Shown here piece after piece: positions 3,254-51,068 of a stretch of DNA of 64,000 bases (positions within the stretch are counted from its first letter, which is position 1; every line of letters begins with the position of its first letter). The notes below the pieces were generated by a model that had not been told where the DNA came from, did not search any database, and saw only the letters and a list, made by a program, of their open reading frames with translations. The translations under genes and the position numbers were made by a program. This DNA comes from a virus. Location: the IMG/VR virus record IMGVR_UViG_3300042975_000098, one strand, 5' to 3'.

Positions 3254-5506
3254 ATGGCCCTGCGTCCACGTCACGGCGATTCGCCGGCGACGACGCCGGC
3301 TAACCCGGAGAGGGCGGGGGAACCAGCCGATGCCGCTGGCGTCAACCAGTCGGCTTCCGTCGACCCAATTACCCGGACCCCGGTCCCAGCCGTTGGCGAG
3401 ACCGTCGCCCAAGCCGGTCATCCCGCGCTCGTCGACGAGCCGCTGGCTCCGCCCGCCATGCCGATTCCAACTCCTGATCCGCATCCGCGCCGCGCCCGAC
3501 CGCATGCCGACCACGTTGCGCCTGAGCCAGATGATCAACCCGATGATGCGGGCGATGGCGAATCTCCGGGCGCCGGCGCTTCCGGTTCGCCCCGCGGACG
3601 TTCGGCCGCTTCTTCGGGCGCGCCTCCACGCCCGGTGTCACCTATGCCCGCCGGAGCGCCAGCACCGGCCTCCGCTGCCACGCCGGCTTCGTCGGCGGCG
3701 CCTCATCAGGCTTCATCGGCTCCGCATTCGACGCGGCGCCGATCATCATCGTCGGCGGCGCCGACATCCGCTGCCGCACCGGCGGGGGCGTCGCCATCGC
3801 CATCGTCATCGGCGGGCGGCCCTGCGCCACCGGCGGTTGCGTCGCCATCGTCCGGCGGCCCTGCGCCCTCGCCGACCGCCGGCCCATCGTCATCGGCGGG
3901 CGGCGGATCGTCATCATCGGCTCCGCCCTCCCCGTCGCCGCGCCGAGCCTCGTCCTCGCGGCATGCGCCGCCGCCGAACTCGTTCGCGGCGCGCGCGGCG
4001 CGGAGCATGCGCTCGTCGGCCGGTTTCGATTCGCTGACGTCGCGCGCCGCCTCGGCCATATCGGCGGCGAAGTCGCTGGGCAGTCAGGCGTGGAACACCA
4101 TCAAGTCCGTTGCCGGGAAGACGAAGCGCGCGGTTCTCGGCTTCATCTCGTTTGTGAGGAACCCGCTGGTATGGGGCACGGCGGTGTTCCTCATCGCGGC
4201 GCTGCTGTTCACATCCCTGTTCCAGACGCTTGGCAAGGATGACGTGAAGACGTCGTGCGACACCGCCGACTCCGCGTCCACGGTGAACCTCGGTGGCGAT
4301 ATCGGGAACAATGAGGATGCGAAGAAGATCGTGGCCATTCTCAACGACCCGAAGTCCGTCGGCGCCGATTCGCTGGCCGGCAAGTTCGGCAAGACGCAGA
4401 TAGCGGCGTTGCTGGGCAACTGGACCATAGAGTCATCCATGCATTTCAACGTCACCTACGGGCATCAGAAGGACGGGGCCAGCAACTCGGATCTGGCCTC
4501 CTGGCTGTCCGGGAAGTCGGTGGCCCCGATCGGGCTTGTCCAGTGGAACGGCGGTAGGGCATCCACCCTTGTCAGGCTTGCCGATTCGGAGGGCAAGCAG
4601 TGGTATGACGGTTCCGTGCAGATGAAGATGTTCCTTAACGAGATGCAGGCCGAGTATGGCAAGACGCTTGAAGGACATGGGTTCTTCTCCACCGATGATC
4701 TACAGACGGCCACGCGGATAGTCCAGGACTATTACGAGGTACCGGCGTTGCCGGGCACGCCAGCGGCCGCCGCCGAACTGTCGAAACGCTATGCCGCCGC
4801 CCAGACTGTGGCGAAGGCGATCGGCGGCATGTCCACGACGACCGTGGAAGCATCATGCGATGATGCTGGCGCGCACGGCGATCCGAGGTTCGGCAGCACG
4901 GACAACCCCGGCATCAAGGATGACGAGTGGTCGAAGGCCAGCAAGTACGCGCAGGCGACGGTGAACACGGCGATAGCGTTCGTCCAGGATGACCGGCTGT
5001 TCTACCAGCAGCTTCCGCCGAACGCGGGTGGTTATGACTGCTCGGCTTTCGTGACCGCCGTCATCGAACTGGCGACGGGGTACACGTATGCGGGCACGAA
5101 GGTCACGAAGGGATACGATCCGAAGGATTTCTTCGAGCACCGCGCGGAGAAGACCAAGCGCGACCTTCAGTGGCCAACGTACACGGGTGGCATGATGGCA
5201 GCCGTGCCGGCGTCGTCGAAAGCATACGTCGGCATGAGCAGTGACGGCGACATCGAGGGCAAGCTCCAACCGGGCGACGTGTTCGTGAATGACGAGCACA
5301 CCAAGATGTACGCGGGTCATCGCGCGTCGGACGGCAAGGTGGTGTGGGTGCAGTCATCCTGCCCGGGGGCGGAGAAATGGAAGGATATCGCTATGACGAA
5401 GAAGCGATCTGATATGGGCGTTTCCGTGAGCTCGGGCATCGATGCCGGCGATGGAATGACCTATCAGGTGTATCGACCATACGTTCTCATGGGGTCGAAC
5501 GGCTGA
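3254..5506 (+). CDS. Conjugation peptidoglycan hydrolase: Pro/Ser-rich N-terminus, TM anchor, phage-tail-lysozyme-like domain and NlpC/P60 domain (VirB1/CwlT role)
   Basis: IAALLGNWTIES...GLVQWNGGR...YEVP (lysozyme-like) and GGYDCSAFV...LQPGDVFVNDEHTKMY (NlpC/P60 Cys-His). Confidence 0.85.
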   Translation: MALRPRHGDSPATTPANPERAGEPADAAGVNQSASVDPITRTPVPAVGETVAQAGHPALVDEPLAPPAMPIPTPDPHPRRARPHADHVAPEPDDQPDDAGDGESPGAGASGSPRGRSAASSGAPPRPVSPMPAGAPAPASAATPASSAAPHQASSAPHSTRRRSSSSAAPTSAAAPAGASPSPSSSAGGPAPPAVASPSSGGPAPSPTAGPSSSAGGGSSSSAPPSPSPRRASSSRHAPPPNSFAARAARSMRSSAGFDSLTSRAASAISAAKSLGSQAWNTIKSVAGKTKRAVLGFISFVRNPLVWGTAVFLIAALLFTSLFQTLGKDDVKTSCDTADSASTVNLGGDIGNNEDAKKIVAILNDPKSVGADSLAGKFGKTQIAALLGNWTIESSMHFNVTYGHQKDGASNSDLASWLSGKSVAPIGLVQWNGGRASTLVRLADSEGKQWYDGSVQMKMFLNEMQAEYGKTLEGHGFFSTDDLQTATRIVQDYYEVPALPGTPAAAAELSKRYAAAQTVAKAIGGMSTTTVEASCDDAGAHGDPRFGSTDNPGIKDDEWSKASKYAQATVNTAIAFVQDDRLFYQQLPPNAGGYDCSAFVTAVIELATGYTYAGTKVTKGYDPKDFFEHRAEKTKRDLQWPTYTGGMMAAVPASSKAYVGMSSDGDIEGKLQPGDVFVNDEHTKMYAGHRASDGKVVWVQSSCPGAEKWKDIAMTKKRSDMGVSVSSGIDAGDGMTYQVYRPYVLMGSNG

Positions 5507-6904: not shown

Positions 6905-9900
6905 GTGCTCGTGAACGTCGCTTATGCTGGCCGGCGACCCGTCATCGGCTCGTACCGGCCGCGGACGATCGTCCGCCGCGTGGTCGCATCGATCATGATC
7001 GTCGTGTTCCTGCTGACCGGCGTGATCGTCTCCGCGTCCGCGGCGTTGGCTGATGACGATTGTTCGCCCGGTGATTCCAACCCCGTGTACAAGCAGTTCA
7101 AGAAGGCGGCGTGCCAGGGAATTCACTCGCCGGACGGCTCCGACCCGCTCGACAAGGTGATGAGGAACGACCCGTCGAAGAATGACGAGTCGCTGGGCGT
7201 GGTCAGCCTCATCTACAATCGTATGCTCAACCCCGCGTACTACATCAACTCCGGGGTGAACGCTGGCGACGCCGACTCGTGGAAGGGTCATTGCGCGGCG
7301 TTGGATTCGCCGCCGACGTTATCGAACAACAACTGCGACGTGCCGGGGATACTCACCGAGGCCATCCAGGACGTGGCGAACGTCATCGAGCCATCGGGTA
7401 TCACCAGCGGGCAGAAGGACGTGGCGAAGACTCCGCTTGGGCTCGGCATCGCCACGTCGCTGCTTCCGACCGACGACGTGCCCGCCAAGGCGGAGGACCG
7501 CACGTACAAGTACACCGGGCTTGAGGACTTCGGATACAACCTGCAATGGGTGAGGTACGCCGGCGAGTGGGATTACGTGAAGGTGTACACCGAGGATCGT
7601 CTCAAGACGTCCATGGGCCTCGGCGACGCGATATCCCTGCCGTTCAAATCGCTGTGGTCCGGCATGAAGTCCGGGGTCGGCGTCTACTCCGATCTCGTAT
7701 CGAAGCTTTCCAGCGGCGACTACTCCGGTCTCGCCGGGTCATTGCTTCACGCCAACCCGTTCGGCTCGGCCGCCGCCGCCGGCGACGCCATGAGCTACAC
7801 GTTCCTGAGCACCGTGCTCAATGGCTATGAGCAGACCGTGGTGAAGGACGGTTCGTGGTACCGTCCGGAGTTCGCCAACTCGACGGTGTATGGGTCGCGC
7901 TCGCTTACGGACATCGAGATTGCGGCCTTGTCCCGCGTGAACGTCGTCGACCTGTGGAACCAGAACATCGCGGGGGTGCTGGGCAAGTATGGCATCGACG
8001 TCGACGGTCTGAAACGACAGTCGGCGGCGCCGGCCGCTCCGGTGAAGGACGTCAAGAAGGACAAGGACGGCAATATCGTCAAGGACAAGGACGGCAAGGA
8101 TGTCACCGAGTACGAGCCGTGGTCGAAGTGGAAGTCCGAAAACCAGAAGCAGATCGACTGGGGGAAGGCCAACCTGAACGTCGACGCGGGCAAGTATGAC
8201 GACTCGGCCGGTGATGCGCTCGACAAGTACAACGCGCTGAAGACCGAGTGGTCCAAGGCAGCCGACTCATGGGTGGAGGCGCAGTCCAAGGCGCAGGAGG
8301 ACCAGAACATGCCCTCCATCCTGTCGGATATGGGAACGCTCATCGGCGGCGCGACGTCGACGTTGCAGCAGTCCGCGTCGAATCCGTCGTCGGCCCTGTA
8401 CTGCGCCGATGACGAGAACCAGCCGGTCGGCTCCGCCAGCAACGCCATCGTGAAGTCGGCCGTCTCCAAGGGGCTGCGCGACCCCGGCAAGGAGGCGTTC
8501 GACGCGGATGGGAACTGGGCGTGCGGCGGCTCACCGCGCCCGACCATCGTCGGCGGGCTGTTGGGCTCCGCCGGCGACGAGCAGCAGAAGGCCTCCAAGG
8601 ACACGAGACGCACCGCATGGGGCGGGTTCAACATCATGGACACGCTGCTGTGGAACAAGTTCGATTGGCTCTCCCAGAAGATACTCGGCGCCAGCCAATG
8701 GCTGGCCATGCTGACGAACCAACTCATCGCCATGAGCTACCAGCCGATACTCACGCAGCTTGGTCTGAAGGCGCTGACCATCAAACTCGTCACGGCGTTC
8801 AAGGACACGATATACATGAACCTGCTGGTGCTGTTCATCGCCATCGCCGCGCTCATGATACTGCTGCGGTTCACGAAGGGCGAGTGGACCGCGAGCTTCG
8901 GCCAGATCGGCGGTCTCGGGATGACGATCGGGCTCGGCATCATCGTGCTGCTGTCGCCCTCGGCCATCTTCACACTCGTTGATGACGCGCCATCGATGCT
9001 CGAACGCGCGGGCATGGCCACGATACTCCAGCCGTCCGCGAACGATGCCGTCTGCAGTGCGACGGGAACGGCGAAGGGCACCATATCGGTCGGCGATTAC
9101 GTCGACCTGTTCGGCAAGGACACCGGTTTCAACCCTGATTCCACAGTGCGGACCATGCAGTGCGACGTGTGGAAGGCGTTCGTCCTCAACCCATGGGCCT
9201 TCGGCCAGTTCGGAACCAACATCGACAACCTGTACGCCGACGGCCACGCCGGCGAGGGCGATTCCGGCGCATCGGATATGAAGACCAGCACCGACGTCCG
9301 GAAGATCGTGGGCGACGCCGCGGTCAACATGGGCGACGGGAAGATCGTCAACAACTGGGGGATCTACCAGTTGTCGCATGAGCTGTCCGGATCGTCGACG
9401 ACCGTGGACGCGACGGCGACGAACGGCGTCATCGACAAGGACCTGTACCGGCTCGTCGATCTCCAGGCCGGGCCGGATAACGCGGCCGGTCGCACCACGA
9501 AGTACTTCGAGGCTTGGAAGGGCTCGACGGCATCGCGCATGCTCGTGGCGATCGTGGCGCTGGCGTCGAACGTCATGGCGCTTATCGGACTTGGCGGTCT
9601 GGCTCTGCGCAAGATCGAGTACACGGTGCTCATGTGCCTGTTCCTCATGATCCTGCCGTTCATGCTGCTCATCGGTCTGCTGCCCGGGAACAGCAGGATG
9701 AAGCTCAAGTCGTACGGCTGGGAGATTCTCGGGCTGGTGCTCAAGCGCGTGTTCTCGGTGATCATCCTCACCGTTGGCATCATGGTGGTGCTCGGAGGGC
9801 AGACTGGCGACTCGGACTTCTTCACCCAGTCGTTGGCGACGATGGCGCTCGCGGGCGTGGTGATGATCTACGGGCCGAAGCTTCTTGGGCTCATGTCATC

Positions 9901-26539: not shown

Positions 26540-26641
26540 GCCGGGCATCACGCATCGGTGCCGGAAACAGTTAGATGAACGTCGATATTACCATGTCGTT
26601 GTCTTAACGGCGACGGGTGGATTCTAACGGAAGGCAGAGAA

Positions 26642-26962
26642 ATGTTCACATTCGATGTGCTCAATAACGGGCTTACTCTGATCATGGCCAGTGGTCTGAG
26701 CGGATTGGCGACCTCGCTGATCAAGAACTGGATCGGACCGGTGTTCCTGGTCATCGTCGCGGTCACCGCGTTCGGCTTCATCAGAAGCCAGGCGTGGACG
26801 AAGCTGATCGCGTTCGTCGGCATCGCCGCGCTCGTCGGCGCGCTGATCTTCTTCGGCAGCGACCTGTTCGGTCAGGACGGCGTGATCTCCGGAATGTTCA
26901 CGAACGCCGGCAAGGCCGTGGGCGGCGCCAACAACAACACCGGCGCGTTCAGCGGTCAATGA
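26642..26962 (+). CDS. Small 2-TM protein, VirB2/TrbC pilin-like
   Basis: 106 aa with two hydrophobic helices and a basic linker (FIRSQAWTKL), directly after the tcpC-like gene. Confidence 0.6.
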   Translation: MFTFDVLNNGLTLIMASGLSGLATSLIKNWIGPVFLVIVAVTAFGFIRSQAWTKLIAFVGIAALVGALIFFGSDLFGQDGVISGMFTNAGKAVGGANNNTGAFSGQ

Positions 26963-34415: not shown

Positions 34416-34988
34416 ATGGCACAGGCAAGCATGCAGGAGATCATCTACGGTGGCGTATCGTTCATCGGCGAGCCCCGCAAGTTCAACACCACGAACCGCG
34501 AGGGCAGGGAGGTGACGCGCACTGCTGTGAACATCAGCATCGCCGTCGCCCGCCGCCAGTTGAACCGCGACACCAACCAGTGGGAGGACACCGATAAGTT
34601 CTACGTGGACTGCTCGCTGTTCGACCGTCTCGCCGATAACGCGCTCGCTTCTCTTCACCTCGGTGACCGCGTGTTCGGCGTCGGCCGTCGCCAGTACAAG
34701 AAGCCGTGGACCGATAAGAACGGCGTGGAGCATAAGAACGACACGCAGGTGGTCCTCGACTACCTCGGTCCCGATCTGAACATGTGGCCATGGCAGGTGA
34801 ACCGTCCCGACCGCGCAGCCGGCTCCTCAAGCGCGCCGGCGAGCCGCCCGGCCCCAGCCAAGCGTCAGGCCACGGCCAAGGCACCGGCCGCGAAGACGCC
34901 GGTGACGAGCGCGCCCGCGGATGACCCGTTCGGCGATCTGGACATCGGCAAGGAGTTCGAGGCCGGCTCCGACCCTTGGGGCGACTGA
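34416..34988 (+). CDS. ssb: Single-stranded DNA-binding protein
   Basis: NRDTNQWEDTDKFYVDCSLFDRLADNALASLHLGDRV...LGPDL is an actinobacterial SSB pattern; acidic tail; AGGAAAGG SD. Confidence 0.92.
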   Translation: MAQASMQEIIYGGVSFIGEPRKFNTTNREGREVTRTAVNISIAVARRQLNRDTNQWEDTDKFYVDCSLFDRLADNALASLHLGDRVFGVGRRQYKKPWTDKNGVEHKNDTQVVLDYLGPDLNMWPWQVNRPDRAAGSSSAPASRPAPAKRQATAKAPAAKTPVTSAPADDPFGDLDIGKEFEAGSDPWGD

Positions 34989-48930: not shown

Positions 48931-49884
48931 GTGATGATGGCAGATACGTTCATGAGGACCCCGTTCGTCTCGCATGATCAGCCGGATGCGGATGGCGTCC
49001 GCGCGGAGGTCATGGTGCAGACCGGCGTGGCCATGGTCGCGTCGGTGGACAGCAATGGCAAGAACGCCAAGGTGGAGCTGAAGGCCGATAACCAGAAGTA
49101 CACGGTGAAGACGTGGATGACCCCCGGCAACAAGGCGTTCGACATTCTCGATGACGCCTATAAGAACAACAAGCCCATCAACGTCCGCGTCGAGCAGCGC
49201 AGGCTGAAGAGGAACCGCGACACGAAGGAGCCGATTCTTCGCTCGACCCCCATCAGGGAGCTTCTCGTGGACCCCACGACCCATAAGCAGACGAACGACC
49301 TGGCCCGCCGCAACGCGGTGAAGACGCTGGTCGGCGTCGCTCCCGTGGACGGCGACATGGAGTTCACCGGCGAGGAGGTGACGCTGCCATCCGAGGACCC
49401 GCAGGAGGGTTCGCACGCCGGCGTCATGTCATCGAACCCGGTGACCTCGACGCCGCCCGCCGGCTACCATTCCGATGGCTATGAGGCCCAGCCGTGGAAG
49501 GGCACGAACAACGATGGCACCGTGAACGCCGGCGCGTATGGCGTGGGCGCGGCCGCCGGGTTCTACTTCCTCGCGTTGGAGCAGAACGCGAAGATCGGCG
49601 ACGCGCTGGCGAAGACGTTGGCGTCGAAGCTGATGGTGGTGTGCGATTACATGCAGAAGAAGGTGTATGACGGCCGTCAGGAGTACGCCGAGCGGAACGC
49701 CGCATCGCATCTTCGCGCGCGCGAGGTGGTCACCGAGGTCATCAAGAGCCGTCTGCAGATCACCGATGAGGTCCTTGCCTCCAGCGAGTCGCTGGGCGAG
49801 TGGCTGAAGAAGGTTCTCGCCGCCTCCGAGGAGATATACCAGTGGGCTTACGAGGATTACGGGAAGTCCATCGCCAACCGGTGA
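48931..49884 (+). CDS. Hypothetical protein
   Basis: 317 aa with AAGGAG SD and its own GGTATAAT promoter. Confidence 0.75.
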   Translation: MMMADTFMRTPFVSHDQPDADGVRAEVMVQTGVAMVASVDSNGKNAKVELKADNQKYTVKTWMTPGNKAFDILDDAYKNNKPINVRVEQRRLKRNRDTKEPILRSTPIRELLVDPTTHKQTNDLARRNAVKTLVGVAPVDGDMEFTGEEVTLPSEDPQEGSHAGVMSSNPVTSTPPAGYHSDGYEAQPWKGTNNDGTVNAGAYGVGAAAGFYFLALEQNAKIGDALAKTLASKLMVVCDYMQKKVYDGRQEYAERNAASHLRAREVVTEVIKSRLQITDEVLASSESLGEWLKKVLAASEEIYQWAYEDYGKSIANR

Positions 49885-49896
49885 TATTGTCATGCT

Positions 49897-49989
49897 GTCC
49901 AGTCGATGAGGATTACGAAGGTCCGCGCTCAACGGAGTCCGAGACCATAGTGCCTCACTATGAATGACCTTACTCATCGGCTGGATTTT
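49897..49989 (+). ncRNA. Candidate structured non-coding RNA (~90 nt)
   Basis: Begins exactly 8 nt after GATATT. It has a 14-bp terminal stem GTCCAGTCGATGAG/CTCATCGGCTGGAT, inner stem AAGGTC/GACCTT, hairpin CATAGTG-CCT-CACTATG, ends in TTTT and has no credible ORF. Confidence 0.6.
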
Positions 49990-49995
49990 CATTAC

Positions 49996-50035
49996 CAGTT
50001 CGGGGTCGGCGAATCACATCGTCGGCCCCGAACTG
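49996..50035 (+). terminator. 17-bp stem-loop
   Basis: CAGTTCGGGGTCGGCGA / TCGTCGGCCCCGAACTG, fully paired with two G-U pairs on the + strand. Confidence 0.7.
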
Positions 50036-50060
50036 TATGCGTGACGGTATAATGCCGGTC

Positions 50061-51068
50061 ATGACAAGACTCGTGACGATCAACTACGAAACGCTTTCCT
50101 ACGCCGAGCAGCGGGCATCCGACATCATGGACGAATGGGGCATCGACCGAGCGTCGCGCAGGCACACCGATGACGTCGTCAAGCGCCCCGGCCGCACGCT
50201 GTTCGGCCCGCCCATGGCGTGCGTGCTCACCATCAGGGACAAGTCGATGCTTGAGGCCGCCACCAGCGCCATGGCGGCGGAGGGAGCGGCGTTCGCGGGC
50301 GCCGGCGTGGTCATGCTCGCGTCGTTCCCCGAGAACACGAAGGCCATGAAGTCGTTCACGGCCGCCGTGCGCGAACTCGGCGGGGTGGCGGAGACGCCCA
50401 AGAAGAACCGCGACGGCGAGATAACCGCGATCATGTCGACCATACACCTCAACGCGAGGTCCGCCGAGTTCCTGCTATCCTACGTTGGCGGCGATTACGA
50501 GATACTGCTGCCGTTGGCGAAGTCGATAGCCGTGCTGCCGCGCGCCGAGCAGGAGGCGCTGACGGTCGACGACCTCATCGTCAGGCTTCCCGACCATCCG
50601 GGGGAGATAACGGTGTGGGGCGATTTCCGCAAGCATGAGCAGGGGCTTGACGATCTGATCATGGCCGGCGATCGCGGCGCCGCGCTCGCCCGTCTTCGTC
50701 GTATACTCGCGGGCGGCACGCAGCCGCTTGTCGTACTCGCGTTCCTCCGCAACCGGTTCGCCGCGATGTACCAGTTGAAGACGATGCTGGCCGCCGGTGT
50801 CGACGCCAGCACCGCGGCGGTCACGCTTGGCCTTCCCGACCCGGCATACAGCGGCAAGGGCCGTAAGGACCCGAAGACCGGTAAGAGCGGGTACCCCACC
50901 TTGAAGACGATACGCGCGCTCGGCGGCGCATCGGAGAGCGCGCTGACCAATGACATGAGGGAGTTCGTCAGGATCTCGGAGATCATGAAGGGGCAGCACC
51001 CCACCATACGCATGGATGCCGCTGATGCCCTGATCCACCTTGTGGCCACCATCACCATGGAAGGATGA
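50061..51068 (+). CDS. holA: DNA polymerase III delta subunit-like (clamp loader), divergent
   Basis: ~335 aa; RTLFGPP, AEFLLSYVGGD, GDRGAALARLRRIL...PLVVLAFL and C-terminal MKG follow the actinobacterial HolA pattern. Confidence 0.6.
   Translation: MTRLVTINYETLSYAEQRASDIMDEWGIDRASRRHTDDVVKRPGRTLFGPPMACVLTIRDKSMLEAATSAMAAEGAAFAGAGVVMLASFPENTKAMKSFTAAVRELGGVAETPKKNRDGEITAIMSTIHLNARSAEFLLSYVGGDYEILLPLAKSIAVLPRAEQEALTVDDLIVRLPDHPGEITVWGDFRKHEQGLDDLIMAGDRGAALARLRRILAGGTQPLVVLAFLRNRFAAMYQLKTMLAAGVDASTAAVTLGLPDPAYSGKGRKDPKTGKSGYPTLKTIRALGGASESALTNDMREFVRISEIMKGQHPTIRMDAADALIHLVATITMEG

Follow-up and report, generated by a model that had tools for sequence, protein, structure and literature searches.

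The window, that is, the whole 64,000-nucleotide stretch of DNA analysed here (IMG/VR record IMGVR_UViG_3300042975_000098), carries a folded element of ~95 nt between two DNA-handling genes. One design, with compensating changes, recurs for this RNA unit in four lineages, and the unit is therefore very likely to be a real RNA gene of a new family. We rate this family as new, though of a general kind that is already known. Direct observations of the present analysis are the fold, the conservation and covariation of that fold, the spacing of the motif that precedes it and the lack of any Rfam match. On balance, and with moderate confidence, we favour the reading of the unit as the gene of a small RNA belonging to a new family, with its own promoter and a DapZ-like layout, whose product would be a stable, trans-acting, protein-binding RNA.

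Structure of the RNA unit

The unit is read on the + strand and is organised around two helices. P1, a helix of 14 bp with two G-U pairs, joins 49897-49910 to 49973-49986. Its 5′ strand starts at the predicted +1, the seventh nucleotide after a putative -10 hexamer, and its 3′ strand runs into UUUU (49973-49989, with the U run at 49986-49989), giving the unit a terminator-like end. P2, of 6 bp, pairs AAGGUC (49918-49923) with GACCUU (49966-49971), and its inner three pairs covary among lineages. The two helices are joined on the 5′ side by a 7-nt asymmetric loop, GAUUACG (49911-49917; family consensus RAUWANR), and on the 3′ side by a single unpaired purine, an A, which follows the 3′ strand of P2 (the two together occupying 49966-49972). 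Above P2 lies a variable apical domain (49924-49965) comprising two hairpins. P3, GCUC-AACG-GAGU (49927-49938), is found in the window clade only; P4, CAUAGUG-CCU-CACUAUG (49946-49962), has a GUG..CAC base which is common to all lineages. The loop enclosed by P1 is in this way a branched domain of 62 nt with a three-way junction. Downstream stands a separate, G+C-rich hairpin of 17 bp (49996-50035, + strand), which is again confined to the window clade. A previous reading, made from the letters alone, had described the 14-bp stem with its two G-U pairs, the internal loop, the AAGGTC/GACCTT stem, the two hairpins, TTTT and the 17-bp hairpin, and every one of these was recovered with the same positions and pairings.

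The segment 49897-49986 gives a branched fold of -37.7 kcal/mol against a mean of -23.7 for dinucleotide shuffles (z -4.5), and none of 200 shuffles equalled it. When the second hairpin is included (49883-50040) the energy is -72.5 against a shuffle mean of -45.5 (z -6.6; 0 of 200 shuffles equal), whereas the opposite strand of the same interval folds more weakly (-60.6). All non-Watson-Crick pairs of the long stems are G-U when read on the + strand, as had been remarked before. The same holds for six of six lineage-independent non-Watson-Crick pairs, and in every lineage the + strand folds better than the opposite strand. Internal ATG frames are also present, differing in length and sequence from lineage to lineage; the reading of the unit as a small coding ORF is consequently rejected.

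Genomic setting

The window is one long + strand gene array of ~63% G+C. The gene order around the unit is Tad ATPase, platform protein, MoxR ATPase, VWA-metallopeptidase, the gene for a 317-aa protein, the gap with the RNA, a holA-like gene, SbcC, GyrB and a DnaE-type polymerase, while SSB, DnaB, a PD-(D/E)XK nuclease and SbcD are encoded further upstream. This gene content places the site inside a replication and repair module. The RNA had been assigned to a transfer regulon, a proposal for which no support was found: its neighbours are replication and repair genes and not transfer genes.

The upstream gene (48931-49884, + strand) has the RNA unit directly on its 3′ side in every lineage. 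Its 317-aa product has no Pfam family. In an AF2 model of the protein (mean pLDDT 72.6) the N-terminal domain is OB-fold-like, and the Foldseek matches of the model, all of them weak and none with E ≤ 1e-3, are without exception OB folds (AspRS anticodon domain, Teb1, SSB and RPA). Acidic tips of the SSB kind, ...DEDDEDF and ...DDDLEF, are carried at the C terminus by two homologues, P0005 and the L019 protein. The 317-aa protein may be an atypical single-strand-binding protein that exists alongside the canonical SSB encoded at 34416-34988. As the adjacent protein it is a candidate partner of the RNA, although this adjacency is common to the whole syntenic block and proves nothing.

On the other side of the gap, the clamp-loader delta-like (holA-like) gene is called in relatives from the ATG equivalent to 50061. 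A putative leaderless promoter, TATAAT-N7-ATG, precedes it (50048-50063, + strand; TATAAT at 50048-50053, start at 50061). TATAAT, TACCAT or TATCAT is found N6-7 before the holA-like ATG, with no Shine-Dalgarno sequence, in L001, L006, L016, L019 and L020. The retention of such a -10 box in relatives indicates that the gene is leaderless, and its start is most likely ATG 50061 rather than position 50037 chosen by the ORF finder.

The organisation of this gene bears on the suggestion that the unit acts in cis, as a leader or attenuator. Transcription would stop at P1 and the U run unless a factor bound to the loop blocked P1, in which case it would read through to holA-like, sbcC, gyrB and dnaE. 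Promoter, structured leader, terminator and genes do form a classical layout, the unit always stands ahead of the holA-like gene, and the conserved loop could serve as a sensor. However, in every lineage a separate -10 box stands 6-7 nt before the holA-like ATG with no Shine-Dalgarno sequence, and a gene built for leaderless expression would be translated poorly from a read-through transcript. An attenuator would, moreover, be expected to sit less easily with the second strong hairpin of the window clade and with the ~290 nt more that precede the gene in L001, and no alternative anti-terminator pairing is evident. Attenuation is therefore considered very unlikely.

The setting has also to be weighed in relation to a role at the level of DNA, in which the hairpin would form in single-stranded DNA during conjugative transfer or replication and serve as a single-strand promoter or a site of single-strand initiation. 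Such a role would suit a conjugative element, and it would suit a site whose upstream neighbour is an OB-fold gene, possibly for an ssDNA-binding protein, and whose downstream neighbours are replication genes. It is nevertheless highly improbable, given that every wobble pair is a G-U when read in the direction of transcription, that T/U runs follow the stem on the + strand only, that the promoter-like box lies outside the stem and that no nick-site or primosome motif was recognised.

Relatives and the conserved plan

Protein searches with the two flanking genes led to assemblies of the same gene order. At the DNA level, nothing similar to 49500-50500 was found by BLAST in plasmid and phage records, and protein-anchored scans of genome, viral and metagenome contig collections gave no relatives. 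Four lineages were defined: the window clade (window, L001 and L008), L006/L007, L016/L017 and L020-L022. In L001 and L008 the flanking proteins are 96-98% identical to those of the window and the RNA is almost unchanged. The few differences include one G-C pair of P4 that becomes G-U, the two G-U pairs of the 17-bp hairpin, both of which become G-C in L001 and L008, and a C-to-A change in L008 which breaks just a 2-bp extension below P3. In the other three lineages the flanking proteins are 30-46% identical, the G+C content is 42-48% and the sequence of the gap is different.

The four lineages share one plan in the same gap: the motif, 6 nt, P1, the 7-nt loop, P2, the top, a purine, P1′ and a U run, downstream of which the leaderless promoter of the next gene closes the arrangement. 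P1 is a perfect closing helix of 11-16 bp throughout. P2 has 6 bp in all four lineages and the form ARG.../...CUU, with its inner three pairs changing in step. The loop between them reads GAUUACG in the window, AAUAAGA in L016, AAUUAAA in L020 and AAUUAUG(AU) in L006. The interior is poorly conserved, yet a GUG..CAC-based hairpin is found in every lineage.

In L010, L014, L009 and L018, where the homologue of the upstream gene is more remote, the same position has only a simple hairpin and a T run, from which it appears that the RNA probably grew from a terminator in one branch. L018 has TATAAT together with its simple hairpin, and L019 has the motif, a longer three-way-junction RNA and a separate terminator; neither is alignable, and both were left out of the RNA family.

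Some further features of these gaps may be recorded. In L001 the 17-bp hairpin is separated from the TATAAT promoter by an additional ~290 bases (L001 3680-3975), which are absent from the window and L008 and include a further GATATT inside a short inverted repeat (L001 3719-3735). A TnpB-like frame seen by eye in this insertion was rejected for want of Pfam support. In L005 the gaps flanking SbcC (1195-1285 and 3750-3850) contain repeated TGTGAACA-type palindromes, which give weak matches to the RNA model (E ~1) and are unrelated to the RNA unit.

Tests of covariation

In a hand alignment of the four lineages every one of the 22 pairs is paired in every cell, and 18 of them show compensatory changes. 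When the alignment is fitted by the model, standard pairs fill 97% of the pair cells, compared with 66% in shuffles (0 of 500 shuffles reach 97%), and 17 of 20 pairs have changed on both sides; these pair counts are inflated, since both alignments were made to follow the structure. In the model-fitted alignment, a shift of the partners by 1-3 columns reduces pairing to 27-41%. For P2 of L006 two registers are possible.

Covariance models gave a reciprocal result. The model built from the window clade alone, searched unfiltered, had as its top three matches L006 (30.5 bits), L016 (18.2 bits) and L020 (16.9 bits), all three located where the unit was expected and with the register unchanged. The model built from L006, L016 and L020 only had its best match in 92 kb at window 49897-49992 (26.7 bits, E 7.5e-4), bearing in mind that E-values from home-made models are rough and that the covariation set consists of four lineages. 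No paralogue was found with either model in the window or in the loci of the relatives, the lesser matches being plain hairpins.

Thermodynamic folding is consistent with the consensus: P1 and P2 together lie at, or no more than 1.7 kcal/mol from, the unconstrained minimum-energy fold in each lineage, and the folds of L006, L016 and L020 have z scores of -3.5 to -4.6. A control on viral contigs produced at least 118 chance matches to the pattern, and among those listed the longest run of consecutive P1 pairs was 4, as against 11-19 in the family. The element had been put forward as a structured RNA, with the lack of any conserved or covarying structure in homologues named as an outcome that would speak against it. 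The P1/P2 plan and the motif spacing recur with covariation in distant relatives, and a conserved, covarying structure is found in all four lineages.

The sequence GAUGA(G) occurs once in the RNA of each lineage (window 49905-49910, L006 6042-6047, L016 1324-1329 and L020 2445-2449). It was spotted post hoc, and the joint chance of this is ~0.013. As GAUGA has a background of 3-6 per kb and the structural positions are non-homologous, its recurrence is probably due to chance, and it was rejected as a conserved element.

Promoter-like motif and RNA ends

The motif TGATATTGT (49882-49890, + strand) is read as a putative extended -10 element (TGn + TATTGT). Within it lies the GATATT at 49883-49888, and its first three letters coincide with the TGA stop codon (49882-49884) that closes the upstream gene. 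The 9-mer TGATATTRT is present in the window, L001, L008, L006, L016 and L020, and L019 has the variant TGATATTGA; within the window the full 9-mer occurs once. In the window clade, L006, L016 and L020 it is followed by 6 nt and then by the predicted +1. P1 begins at this very position in three of the four lineages (the window clade, L006 and L020), as the sequence-only reading had noted for the window; the exception is L016, where it begins 6 nt downstream. The distance from motif to stop codon, on the other hand, ranges from 0 nt (window and L020) to 78 nt (L019). A spacing which is fixed to the base of P1 in three of four lineages and variable to the stop codon argues that the motif is a part of the RNA unit rather than of the 3′ end of the upstream gene. 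In a consensus promoter scan the L006 motif appears as TTGACA-17-TATTAT preceded by TG, which agrees with the consensus at 11 of 12 positions; no -35 box was found at the window copy.

Elsewhere in the window and in L006, GATATT precedes leaderless ATGs by 8 nt, or starts that have a Shine-Dalgarno sequence by ~30 nt, a placement more in keeping with a -10 box than with a signal for translation. In L006, the relative with 46% G+C, GATATT-N8-ATG stands ahead of the gene for the Tad platform protein and of one other gene (1041-1057 and 9388-9404), so that the promoter-like class is shared across the element family rather than being peculiar to the window. Separately, in window 26584-26860, the GATATT at 26584 is followed by a short hairpin and then by GGAAGG and an ATG at 26643, which opens the frame of a small hydrophobic protein. 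This protein was missed at the 150-aa cut-off and may be a pilin or VirB2-like subunit.

At the other end of the unit the U run is UUUUUU in L006, UUUUU in L016, UGUUUUU in L020 and UUUU in the window, and it is interrupted in L001 and L008 (UUCUUC). The window clade thus has weaker U runs, but it has the extra 17-bp hairpin, which is absent from L006, L016 and L020 and is probably a second terminator with no U tail. Were this hairpin to be used, the RNA may be ~140 nt long rather than ~95 nt. A scan for Rho-independent terminators gave no match at the RNA unit, even though a stem and a U run are present, because the loop is 62 nt long.

It could be argued from this end that the unit is an elaborated intrinsic terminator and 3′-end stabiliser of the mRNA of the OB-fold gene, with no separate RNA gene, in which case TGATATTRT might be, for example, an RNase E-like cleavage context (AU/AUU) from which the structure would be set free, or a protein site. 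P1 with its U run has the form of a terminator, distant relatives have a simple hairpin and T run at the same place, the lesser matches of the models are ordinary terminator hairpins fitting P1 only, and the motif is placed either on the stop codon or downstream of it, within the 3′ UTR. Rho-independent terminators are short G+C-rich hairpins with a loop of 3-8 nt and a U run directly after the stem. The unit resembles them in having a G+C-containing stem and then a U run at the end of a gene, but departs from them in its 62-nt branched ‘loop’, its conserved internal loop, its second covarying helix and the promoter-like box at a fixed distance ahead. The branched insert, the conserved loop and the covarying P2 would all be superfluous for termination, and the simple terminator scan finds nothing at the unit. 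The motif, furthermore, keeps its distance to the base of the structure while lying 0-78 nt from the stop codon, it reads as a near-consensus sigma-70-type promoter in L006, and GATATT stands N8 before leaderless ATGs elsewhere, as would a -10 box. A terminator and stabiliser without an RNA gene is for these reasons judged unlikely.

Comparison with known RNAs

Rfam 15 gave no match in the whole window at gathering thresholds, none at E ≤ 10 in 49700-50200 and none at the homologous site in L006, L016, L020 and L019. ARAGORN found no tRNA or tmRNA gene in the window. That the element fits none of the tRNA, SRP and hammerhead consensuses had been stated in the sequence-only reading, and this agrees with these searches. 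The hammerhead consists of three helices around a CUGAUGA ... GAAA core with a UH cleavage site. It was rejected as an identity for the unit, there being no model match at E ≤ 10 in 49700-50200, and the GAUGAG of the window is part of P1, its counterparts in relatives standing at positions that are not homologous.

Small, stable, protein-binding RNAs of mobile elements or bacteria with their termini in a helix include 6S RNA and the phi29-type pRNA, the latter also having a three-way junction. 6S RNA is a rod of ~180 nt with a large central bubble mimicking an open promoter. The unit has no such bubble and no Rfam match; its fold of 90 nt is half the size of 6S RNA and has a 7/1 internal loop and a three-way junction, and 6S RNA was accordingly rejected. 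It differs from the phi29-type pRNA in having no match to the Phage_pRNA family of Rfam and no complementary loop pair for ring formation.

Y RNA and YrlA are marked by a Ro-binding stem sequence, a tRNA-like module and a neighbouring rsr (TROVE) gene. Membership of this group was also rejected: there is no Rfam match, no tRNA-like module and no TROVE (Ro60) protein among the 29 window proteins scanned. The likeness to them is one of shape, with 5′ and 3′ ends in a long stem that has a conserved asymmetric loop, a variable apical module, a 3′ U run and an architecture suited to protein tethering (PMC4201824).

Small RNAs of the DapZ type have their own promoter at or just before the parental stop codon (PMC9438474). 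The unit resembles 3′-end sRNAs of the DapZ/MicL type in having a promoter-like box at the upstream stop, a terminator that would be shared with the parental mRNA and a predicted length of ~100 nt (PMC9438474). Tested on the sequence, this layout is seen in the overlap of TGATATTGT with the TGA stop in the window and L020, and in the near-consensus -35/-10 of L006. The DapZ/MicL-type RNAs, however, have a conserved single-stranded seed, bind Hfq and pair with mRNAs, whereas the ends of the unit are locked in a 14-bp helix and there is no Rfam or sequence relationship. Seed-like pairing of the loop segments with 44 start regions of the window was no better than that of shuffled segments. By analogy, then, the layout of the unit is closest to that of a 3′-end-derived sRNA and its shape to that of Y RNA. 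The idea that the RNA is a regulator or a decoy of RNAP or another protein received no support from these comparisons, which revealed neither a resemblance to 6S RNA nor an antisense target beyond what shuffles give.

Proposed mechanism and significance

The preferred reading, that of a small RNA gene with its own promoter, leads to a model in which transcription of the unit, its +1 and 3′ end, protein binding and any function are predicted from sequence features. The extended -10 promoter TGATATTGT would overlap the end of the upstream OB-fold gene and direct a start at or near 49897. The transcript would fold at once into a rod with its 5′ end paired to its 3′ end in P1, and P1 with the U run would stop transcription after ~95 nt, or ~140 nt if the second hairpin is used, the 17-bp hairpin acting as a back-up stop in the window clade. 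The same terminator would also end the mRNA of the upstream gene. Carried as a family by giant conjugative or replicative elements, the RNA would be stable and would work in trans by binding a protein, for example as a scaffold, decoy or titrator, rather than by antisense pairing through a seed. Among the unpaired parts, the asymmetric loop RAUWANR alone is conserved; it lies opposite one purine between P1 and the partly sequence-conserved P2. With the ends buried, this internal loop conserved and no complementarity beyond chance, protein binding appears likelier than antisense action.

It is attractive to consider, albeit as a quite unlikely extension, that the RNA is a dedicated subunit of an RNP. 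The ever-adjacent OB-fold protein is one candidate for the partner, which would dock at the loop, and the top would be a lineage-specific adaptor, the complex serving in the processing, replication or transfer of the DNA of the element. If true, this would amount to a Y-RNA/Ro-like or pRNA-like device in a conjugative element.

The description of giant uncultured extrachromosomal elements is just beginning. A compact and well-delimited RNA with a promoter box, covarying helices and a conserved loop provides a handle on the GATATT promoter class, and the unit offers an entry point to an RNA-protein partnership within the replication and repair module. Should it prove to be a component of an RNP, a type of functional RNA not seen before on plasmids would have been found; as a mere regulatory sRNA it would still be a new family, by which relatives may be recognised.
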